A stretch of 64,000 bases of DNA, taken from the NCBI RefSeq assembly GCF_041248615.1, contig NZ_CP158426.1. One strand, given 5' to 3'. Position numbers: made by a program. This document shows positions 33,001 through 36,000 of the stretch, piece by piece. This DNA is from Escherichia coli (lineage in GTDB: Bacteria; Pseudomonadota; Gammaproteobacteria; Enterobacterales; Enterobacteriaceae). How positions within the stretch are numbered: the first letter of the stretch is position 1; every line of letters begins with the position of its first letter.

Positions 33001-36000
33001 CTGGAAGCCTTAATCCCGCTGCTGCCGCCGGAGTATGCCAGCGGCGTGATGTGGGCGCAGAGTAAGTTCAGTTAACCTGGTGCTCATATTCTTACCGGAT
33101 TCGGCGTGAACGCCTTATCCGGCTTAACGCTCCGGTACCCATTGTAGGCCTGATAAGACGCGTCAAGCGTCGCATCAGGCACAAATGTCTAATGCCTACG
33201 ACTACAGCGAAATACAGGTCCCCGCTTCGCCCGCCAGCGTCTCTTCAATCCGCGATAACGCCCCAATCCACGCAGGTTTGCCACGGCTTCTGACATAGCC
33301 ACTCACCGCCGTTACCTTCGGCCCCATCGAACCATCGGCTTTGGCAAATGGCGCTAACTCATCCGGTGTGGCACGGCGAATGGCGCGTTGCTGCGGCGTT
33401 CCCCAGTTTTCATAAACCGCGTCAGCATCGGTGAGGATCACCAGCCCATCGGCGTTAATCTGCTCAGCGAGCAACGCAGCGGCGAGATCTTTATCAATCA
33501 CTGCTTCACTCCCTGCCCCGTCTTTCGTCACAGGCACACCGCCGCCGCCACTGCAAATCACCACATGCCCCTCTTTGAGCAACAACTCAATGGCTTCGCT
33601 GTCGAGAATTTTACGCGGTTGCGGAGACGCCACCACCCGGCGCAAATATTTACCATCACGTTTCATCTGCCAGCCATAAGCCGCTTCCAGTGCCTCTTGT
33701 TCTTCTGGCTGATAAACCGGACCGATAAACTTCTCTGGCTGCAAAAACGCCGGATCATCAGGCGAAACCTCAATGCGCGTCAGCACCGTCGTGACAGGCG
33801 GCATCTGCGGCTGTGCGCTCAAGCTGTGCGCTCAAGCTCTGCGCCAGCATATAGCCAATCATCCCCTGGCTTTCCGCTACCAGCACATCCAGCGGATACG
33901 GTTCTACCTCTTTCCACGCCAGATTCTGTAACGCCAGCAGCCCCACCTGCGGCCCGTTGCCGTGAACAATCGCCAGCCGATAAGAACGGGCCAGGCGCGT
34001 CAACGCGGGTACAGCACTGGCAATATTGCGATATTGATTTTCTGCCGTCAGCGCTTCGCCGCGCTGGAGTAAGGCGTTGCCCCCAAGAGCCACAACCAGT
34101 GTTTTCATGGTTTTCCTTGTAATAATTGTTGACCAAGCCAGAACCCCAGCAGCGTATCTGCCCCTGACGTATGCCCCAGCGCCAGCAGCGAATCAATCGC
34201 AACAGCGGTACGTTTCGGGCAACTCAGAGCATGGACAAAGTGCAGGAGTAGCGAGGCGAAATATCCTTGCGCGGCATAACGTAAATAACTGACGCTCACC
34301 GCTGTGGTAACGAGTTGAAGATTGTCGGAACAGGCAAAAAACTGGCGACCGGAGCGCGTATCTAAAGCGCCATAATACCAGGCCGCCAGCAGCATTCCGC
34401 TCAGCGTGTCATCATGACTCGGCGTTAATCCCGGACCTTTGCCCAGCCAGTGCCGCCAGTCGGTCTTCACGCCATTGAGCGCGGCCTGAAAACAGTGGCG
34501 AAACTGGCGTAATTCAGCAGGAAGCGGATCGCCTGCCGCCAACGCCAGTGGCCCGAAAAGCCCGGTTTCCTCCGCGCGTTGCATCCATGCAGCTGCAAGC
34601 GGTTGAGGATGCGCAGGCGGCGTAATACGCAGCAAACAATAACGCTGTGACTGTTTAACCGTGAAACGTCCGAGGCGAATCCCTTGTGCCACAACCTGCG
34701 GTTGTTCATTGCCGCATAATCCACCGCATAACGCATCGAATTGCGCGCGGCGAAGCACCCATCCTCCGGGGCCGAAACCACTACCCTGACGATGCAGTGT
34801 GAACAATTCACCGCTTTCCGTCATCAGGTTAATCGCCCGCCGCCACACGCCCGCTAACCGCCAGGACTGGCGATAATTCGGTGCACTACGGCTGGCAAGC
34901 AGAGGATGGATGATCGTCATTGTGCGTTCCTCAACCAATCCCCATGCTTTCAGCCAGTGCTTCCAGCGCCTGCTCAAAGCACGCCAGCGGTGCCCGCACG
35001 GTGCCTGCGCCAATCTGCCCGATCCCCGCCTCTTTATGGGCGATACCGGTATTGATGAGTGGCGTAATGCCGGTTTCTACCACGCGACGAATGTCCAGTC
35101 CCAGGCACGCGCCCTGAAAATCCCAGCTTGGGATCTGCAACTGCATATTGCGTTCAAGGAAGATTTCCGCCATCTCTTCAGATACCGCTCTGGCCGCTTC
35201 CATGCCACCCGCACCGACAAAGCGCGTTACGCCAGGCGCTGCGATCATCGCCGCTCCGCCAATACCAAAGGTTTCGGTAATCGCGCTGTCGCCCATATCC
35301 GGGTTCGCCTGCTCCTGCGAGAAGCCAGTGAAAAACAGACCTTGCGGAGTGTTTACAGGCGCAGTAAACCAGCGTTCACCCAGCCCGCTTACCCGAATCC
35401 CGAACATATTGCCGTTGCGGGTCATAGCCGTGACGATGCTGCCTGCGCGGATCATCGCACCAGCATCCATCGCCGCCTTGCAGTAAGCCATCGCGAGGTT
35501 AAGGAAGAACTGATCGGTCACGCTGAGGAAATCCATCACTTCGGCGATGCTCTGTTTATCATGATCAAGGCGAGCAATTTGTGGGGCCAGCGCACGCATT
35601 AACAGTGCTGAGGAAGCAATATTGCGTTGATGGAACTCATCGCCCATGGTAATGCCCTGCGCCATCATCGCGGTAAGATCGATACCGCGCTCCATGCGCC
35701 CCAGCGCCGCGCTTAATACTGGCATTAACACATCGCGCATCCAGCGATGGCGAGTCAGGACATCTTCGCCGTAAGCGCCAAAACGCATCACTTTGCCGAT
35801 ACCTTCGTTGAGGTTGCAGTACGCCCGGTTGCCGTCGGTCACGTTCTCGACCACCAGCATCGGCATACTGGCAGAAGTAATGCCGCCCATTGGCCCGACA
35901 GCATTCACATGGTGACAAGGAATGAAGTTCACTTTCCCCTGCTCCAGTATTGCCAGCGCCTGCGCTTCATCTTTCGCCCAGCCTTCGAACAGACATGCGC

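Follow-up and report, generated by a model that had tools for sequence, protein, structure and literature searches.

A previous study on Escherichia coli K-12 identified YbcF as the catabolic carbamate kinase AllK, which converts carbamoyl phosphate and ADP into ATP and carbamate, an activity demonstrated for the K-12 orthologue only (PMC9843812). In the same strain, and only there, ybcF was shown to be transcribed together with fdrA, ylbE and ylbF (PMC9843812), and these three genes, also called allFGH, encode oxamic transcarbamylase (PMC11326118). The resulting allFGHK operon is switched on by AllS and ArcA in anaerobic growth on allantoin (PMC12535856). The residues with nucleotide-binding and catalytic roles in carbamate kinase have likewise been described (PMC3659122). 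When allantoin is degraded anaerobically, the AllK reaction is the last, ATP-yielding step of the oxamate branch and also forms CO2 and NH3.

Slipped-strand mispairing at direct repeats is a classic source of frameshift duplications, the CTGG hotspot of lacI being a well-known example, and perfect tandem repeats can in turn be deleted exactly by slippage. The stretch of DNA analysed here (the window, 64 kb) is positions 3843666-3907665 of the chromosome of E. coli NRZ14408 (NZ_LT599825.1). This ST362 isolate, which carries both KPC-2 and MCR-1, dates from 2014 and was recovered from a foot wound in Germany (PMC6101002). We show herein that its ybcF/allK gene is interrupted by a perfect 13-bp tandem duplication. 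The frameshift itself was already known, as it is flagged in RefSeq. With a probability of about 0.9, the duplication would be an inherited loss-of-function allele of allK that was produced by replication slippage in the ST362 lineage and probably carries a small fitness cost.

The original prediction placed a doubled 13-bp unit at 33811-33823 and 33824-33836, and the same letters were read again at both sites: CTGTGCGCTCAAG occurs twice, head to tail, inside ybcF/allK. Tandem Repeats Finder reported a period of 13 with 2.7 copies at 33810-33844, and perfect period-13 identity runs from 33810 to 33838 (29 nt). Because the run spans these positions, the junction of the duplication is ambiguous by 3 nt (GCT microhomology). 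This is the sole perfect tandem duplication with a period of at least 9 in the 64-kb window, and no perfect tandem duplication with a period of at least 13 occurred in 60 Markov (composition-preserving) shuffles of the window; a chance repeat was therefore ruled out. Between 33000 and 34300, no promoter or terminator made by the duplication was found. No RNA element lies at the duplication site, all of the gathering-level Rfam matches in the window being elsewhere, and the same holds for the window's single tRNA. A gene at the site on either strand was also ruled out, since the plus-strand ORFs there are unconserved antisense frames.

The affected gene occupies 33202-34108 on the minus strand, and its 907 nt equal an 894-nt gene plus the 13-nt duplication; PGAP assigns identical coordinates, with the RefSeq label "ybcF, carbamate kinase, frameshifted" and pseudogene status. 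As had been predicted, removal of one unit yields a continuous 297-aa protein, encoded by a computed ORF of 894 nt. This repaired product is 99% identical to K-12 YbcF (293 of 297 residues) and scores 617.3 bits against NCBIfam NF006926 (cutoff 416) over profile positions 1-296 of 297, which makes it a full-length, above-cutoff match to carbamate kinase (EC 2.7.2.2; NF006926/TIGR00746; amino-acid kinase fold). In the PDB, the top matches to it are carbamate kinases without exception. The earlier description of the gene as "carbamate-kinase-like" was thus borne out and can be sharpened to the catabolic carbamate kinase AllK (PMC9843812). In an alignment to the Enterococcus faecalis enzyme (efCK; 1b7b), YbcF residues K202 and D203 correspond to Lys209 and Asp210, and K260 falls on the lysine of GSMLPK in efCK, which is taken as Lys271.

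In the window allele, translation from the ATG at 34108 on the minus strand gives 95 native residues (ending AQSLSAQ), and the frame is lost after Gln95. The +1 frameshift and early stop of the original prediction were confirmed by ORF translation, in which a premature TGA (33770-33772) follows 17 codons past Gln95. The resulting N-terminal ORF (33770-34108, minus strand) encodes 112 aa, 95 native and 17 out of frame. It retains the GGN loop and the HGNGPQ motif, and it reaches 190.4 bits against the NF006926 cutoff of 416, covering profile positions 1-98 of 297. K202, D203 and K260 all lie downstream of the frameshift, and the 112-aa product has none of them. These residues are found instead in a C-terminal remnant ORF (33202-33822, minus strand), which would comprise 206 aa if begun at a TTG (33822) and 200 aa if begun at the ATG of native Met98 (33804), and which is devoid of the N-terminal phosphate-binding loops; this remnant covers profile positions 92-296 of 297.

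Whether the two parts could still yield an active enzyme, through a +1 shift of the ribosome in the 17 codons that precede the stop or through assembly of the fragments, was weighed against these features. The C-terminal ORF does retain a start, either the TTG or Met98 (ATG), and its score of 415.7 bits falls just below the cutoff of 416. However, no slippery or stimulatory motif was recognisable, and no good Shine-Dalgarno sequence was seen ahead of the internal ATG. Moreover, the break lies inside the N-terminal domain, leaving the GGN and HGNGPQ loops on one side and K202, D203 and K260 on the other, and PGAP also calls the gene a pseudogene. Residual AllK function by either route is accordingly rated as extremely improbable. 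In the window allele, no single uninterrupted ORF encodes both the phosphate loops of the N-terminus and the K-D...K residues for catalysis and nucleotide binding. Because the frame breaks after Q95, both fragments score below 416 bits, and K202, D203 and K260 are parted from the GGN and HGNGPQ elements, ybcF of the window is, judged from its sequence, a pseudogene of the carbamate kinase family and not a functional member of it. It is almost certainly a null allele of allK, since K202, D203 and K260 are encoded downstream of the frameshift and the C-terminal ORF has neither the loops nor an evident ribosome-binding site. The predicted course of events is that the duplication shifts the frame after Gln95, that translation would stop 17 codons on, and that the product would be without K202, D203 and K260.

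The original prediction regarded the mutation as an ordinary slipped-strand event, and the ancestral sequence fits this view. On the coding strand, the ancestral order is GCGCAGAGC-TTGA-GCGCACAGC, in which GCGCAGAGC (R1) and GCGCACAGC (R2) are 9-bp direct repeats that match at 8 of 9 positions and recur at a distance of exactly 13 bp, equal to the length of the duplicated unit; K-12 has one further mismatch in the first repeat. The mutant order is R1-TTGA-R2-TTGA-R2. A nascent strand ending in R2 may have re-paired with R1 and copied TTGA-R2 again, which would give the 13-bp duplication. The copies are perfect, head to tail and single in close relatives, and imperfect repeats are present at the spacing of the unit. 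Because the ancestral direct repeats and the R1-R2-R2 product both fit slippage, slipped-strand mispairing appears to be the most likely origin.

Among 5,426 complete E. coli genomes, searched with a full-length locus match and a 71-nt junction probe, the duplication was found in NZ_LT599825.1 only. It is absent from the 5,425 others, and all of those with the locus are single-copy, with a 13-nt gap in the alignment. The nearest relative among the complete genomes, and the only close one there, is isolate 362 from Madrid (NZ_OW967178.1). Over 43.5 kb, five SNPs and the 13-bp indel separate it from the window, and its ybcF (894 nt; WP_000855404.1) is intact; the two-copy state is therefore derived.

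Occurrence in a single RefSeq complete genome is what would be expected if the true genome were single-copy and the NRZ14408 assembly wrong, and long-read assemblies can hold indel errors. Nonetheless, the exact 112-aa truncated product occurs on 17 contigs. The duplication was verified in the DNA of four other NCBI assemblies (GCA_014863425.1, GCA_023094725.1, GCA_020416165.1 and GCA_048068795.1) and was also present in the Logan assemblies of five runs (SRR11318805, SRR27379234, SRR27379322, SRR12326979 and ERR2935576), with identical flanks. Several of the carriers differ from NRZ14408 by SNPs or a deletion of their own, and therefore a single file cannot have been copied into all of them: in GCA_014863425.1, glxK has lost 156 bp in frame, GCA_023094725.1 has glxR P64L, GCA_020416165.1 has ylbE A202S, and GCA_048068795.1 and SRR27379234 have fdrA V190A in common. 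Four carrier genotypes can thus be told apart from that of NRZ14408. A perfect 13-bp duplication is also atypical of homopolymer-type errors. Because independent assemblies repeat both the duplication in the DNA and the truncated product in its exact form, we dismissed an assembly error, the chance of which is negligible. The original prediction had named a single copy in independent sequencing as the observation that would count against it, and had proposed a check against genomes of the same lineage. All of the independent assemblies and read sets show two copies; other ST362-lineage assemblies share the duplication, and isolate 362 is single-copy. The duplication is a real, stably inherited marker of an ST362 sub-lineage. 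Within the ST362 lineage to which NRZ14408, with its KPC-2 and MCR-1, belongs, the mutation probably arose once and would have been stably inherited thereafter.

The same data bear on a reversible switch, in which one- and two-copy states would interconvert by slippage and toggle allK in the manner of phase variation. Reversion is mechanistically possible by a precise slippage deletion. However, the locus has two copies of a 13-bp unit only and no multi-unit tract of simple repeats, and all other E. coli are single-copy. Neither a one-copy nor a three-copy variant was found among ten assemblies and read sets of the lineage, which represent five distinguishable genotypes; copy number was constant throughout, with no polymorphism among clonal relatives. 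Such a switch is considered very unlikely. The finding is an ordinary lineage-specific pseudogene of a classic mutational class.

The genes around the pseudogene are intact. ylbF/allH, a subunit of oxamic transcarbamylase, lies at 34105-34920 on the minus strand, its stop overlapping the start of ybcF by 4 nt (ATGA). It is preceded on that strand by the upstream genes of allFGHK, ylbE/allG (34931-36190) and fdrA/allF (36200-37867). The order fdrA-ylbE-ylbF-ybcF is the same as in K-12, the group is divergent from allDCE, and both the ORFs and the annotation put ybcF last, adjoining allDCE, in agreement with the predicted membership of ybcF in this group. With ybcF closing the allFGHK operon, its frameshift would not be expected to be polar on allFGH. 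Downstream, the convergent ybcF-purK intergenic region contains a REP-like imperfect inverted repeat (33148-33180), and no intrinsic terminator-like site was found in that region.

Loss of AllK would be expected to cost the lineage one ATP and one NH3 per allantoin passing through the oxamate branch, following the published pathway (PMC12535856). Strains with the duplication are thus predicted to lack the final, ATP-yielding reaction of anaerobic allantoin breakdown. By analogy with K-12, the loss is probably near-neutral, with a small cost, because a K-12 ΔybcF mutant has no clear phenotype, carbamoyl phosphate has other outlets, and the paralogue yahI is intact. In particular, carbamoyl phosphate may be diverted to arginine and pyrimidine synthesis. 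yahI is located in a yahF-yahG-yahI cluster of the same genome, and its product belongs to the carbamate kinase family and is 39% identical to AllK.

The K-12 data need to be read with residue 260 in mind. The published "no phenotype" of ΔybcF was obtained in K-12 MG1655, and the K-12 AllK data come from MG1655 and an ASKA clone. K-12 AllK has Asn at position 260, while Lys is found there in all five solved carbamate kinases, in YahI and in the lineage of the window. The 71-mer with K-12 Asn260 is identical in 357 genomes, and among the matches listed the top ones are K-12 laboratory derivatives; the window 71-mer with Lys260 is identical in 1,308 genomes. K-12 AllK may therefore be hypomorphic. 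Near-neutrality deduced from K-12 is an extrapolation, because the K-12 allele with Asn260 may already be weak. By the same token, with Asn at a conserved Lys position, the published kinetics and deletion result for K-12 AllK may understate the role of AllK in most E. coli.

Two of the SNPs that separate the window from isolate 362 are private to NRZ14408 among the complete genomes, NRZ14408 being in each case the only one with an identical 71-mer: P91S in ylbF/allH (34650) and G357R in allC (40323). allC (39255-40490, plus strand) encodes allantoate amidohydrolase, which acts earlier in the same pathway. Both AllH P91S and AllC G357R co-occur with the duplication in assemblies of the lineage. 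AllC residue 357 lies within an S-G-A-G-H-D motif. A literature search on the structural roles of this motif gave nothing usable, and column conservation was used instead, a search of 1.84 billion proteins having supplied 136 representatives of full length. The motif's S, A, H and D are each conserved in 135 of the 136, and position 357 is Gly in 115, while the remainder show V, L, A, S or Y there, with no charged residue; solved AllC homologues have G or A there. G357R is thus plausibly damaging to AllC, an enzyme three steps upstream of AllK.

These changes raise a broader reading, in which the allK frameshift, AllC G357R and AllH P91S, together with the glxK deletion of one member, would reflect lineage-wide decay or silencing of anaerobic allantoin catabolism in a multidrug-resistant ST362 clone, with selection in its extraintestinal niche being relaxed, reversed or positive. 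The 46.9 kb compared with isolate 362 contain three lineage-specific changes, each of which lies in the allantoin (ALL) cluster, and no other complete E. coli genome has either of the two SNP alleles. In addition, position 357 is never charged in the 136 AllC homologues and belongs to a near-invariant SGAGHD motif, and a 156-bp in-frame deletion has removed part of glxK in one lineage member. However, the cluster makes up 42.5% of that length, so that three of three corresponds to p ~0.08 in a post hoc comparison, and the enrichment was judged not significant. Some homologues also carry V, L, A, S or Y at the AllC column, which indicates that a side chain can be tolerated there, and within-lineage variants were sampled inside the ALL region only, which entails an ascertainment bias. 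Decay of the whole pathway is therefore regarded as rather unlikely; the AllC and AllH changes offer a weak hint toward it, as a hypothesis and not a finding. Should both substitutions likewise impair their proteins, this lineage would exemplify natural loss of the allantoin pathway in E. coli. Inheritance of a single allK null allele produced by slippage is the reading we favour, and its duplication provides a clean, stable genotypic marker for the ST362 sub-lineage with the KPC-2/MCR-1 clinical isolate.

Compared with the enzyme characterized in K-12 (Kim & Kim 2022, PMC9843812), the window gene is an orthologue with the same last place in allFGHK and the same family assignment, NF006926. 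It differs in that its ORF is broken after residue 95, and in that the lineage's ancestral allele has Lys260 where the assayed K-12 enzyme has Asn260. YahI resembles AllK in fold and family and in its FdrA-like and YlbE-like neighbours; at 39% identity and with a different NCBIfam assignment (NF009007), however, it is only a putative stand-in for AllK. The locus also shares with phase-variable contingency loci a tandem repeat within the coding region whose copy number sets the frame. Unlike those loci, it has two copies only, an invariant copy number in the lineage and no evidence of switching. The closest resemblance in mutational terms is to spontaneous short tandem-duplication frameshifts: the window has a head-to-tail duplication bounded by microhomology that creates a frameshift null allele, and the direct repeats of the ancestral ybcF are spaced as the duplicated unit is. 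Unlike a lacI-type hotspot, where a short unit is present many times, ybcF has a 13-bp unit present twice, and its duplication happened once and became fixed in one natural lineage instead of recurring.

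In the ST362 sub-lineage that carries the allK duplication, sequence changes within the ALL (allantoin) cluster extend beyond allK itself. One of them lies in allC, the allantoate amidohydrolase gene (window 39255-40490, + strand), where a G357R substitution (window 40323) falls within the SGAGHD motif and adjoins the near-invariant His358 and Asp359. Of 136 diverse homologues, 115 have Gly at column 357 and none has a charged residue; of the 5,236 complete E. coli genomes that match here, none outside the lineage carries the G357R allele. G357R may compromise the pathway at a point upstream of allK. 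Likewise lineage-private is P91S in AllH (ylbF/allH, 34105-34920, - strand; substitution at window 34650); the identical 71-mer was found only in NRZ14408 among 4,314 matching complete genomes, and residue 91 is Pro in K-12 and isolate 362.

These two substitutions belong to a set of six SNPs that separate NRZ14408 from isolate 362 (L009) over window 10971-57899, all of which are nonsynonymous: sfmD D331V, fimA P146T, ylbF P91S, allC G357R, allA R25W and ybbA D141V. The three within-lineage SNPs seen (fdrA V190A, ylbE A202S and glxR P64L; comparison sequences L011, L012, L018 and L019) are also nonsynonymous; at nine out of nine over both sets, nonsynonymous changes are slightly in excess (p of about 0.06). 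Structural differences from isolate 362 were also observed. Window 1-12521, an Rhs/PAAR region, is built differently in that isolate; besides two RHS core-domain genes and several incomplete RHS/PAAR pieces, it contains small ORFs with no annotation beyond hypothetical protein, together with an IS3-family element and an ISAs1 transposase. At about window 54505, within the dinQ type I toxin locus (54381-54994; Rfam matches to AgrB at 54381-54469, - strand, and to ES036 at 54952-54994, + strand), NRZ14408 lacks about 1.1 kb of sequence that is present in isolate 362 and includes an ORF with an integrase-core-domain annotation. The window itself closes inside a transposase gene of IS1397 (IS3-like; 63579-64000), which starts a short way downstream of ybbJ and continues past the window end.

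In one lineage member, GCA_014863425.1 (L010), glxK has lost 156 bp in frame (about window 41797-41952), giving a GlxK of 329 aa vs 381 normally. The deletion lies between two ACCGCCGCCGCA direct repeats and is a further slippage-type event within the ALL cluster, or the record may be misassembled at this point. The allE-glxK intergenic region contains an Rfam match to the STnc480 sRNA (41293-41359, - strand; 84.9 bits).

Outside the window, an intact, paralogous yahF-yahG-yahI cluster (NZ_LT599825.1 4117526-4121536; L016, from the same chromosome, 47527-50000) encodes FdrA-like, YlbE-family and carbamate kinase-family proteins, respectively. YahI is 39% identical to YbcF, and the cluster could stand in functionally for allK.

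The K-12 allele of AllK may itself be hypomorphic. At position 260, in the GSMGP(K) motif, K-12 has Asn (codon at 5217-5219 of L021, K-12 MG1655; window 33316-33318), and Lys is found in this lineage, in YahI and in all five solved carbamate kinases. It was the K-12 allele that yielded both the kinetics published for AllK (about 1.8 U/mg) and the ΔybcF null phenotype (PMC9843812). In the Enterococcus faecalis carbamate kinase, the counterpart of position 260 is taken to be Lys271, which forms a salt bridge to the beta-phosphate (PMC3659122).
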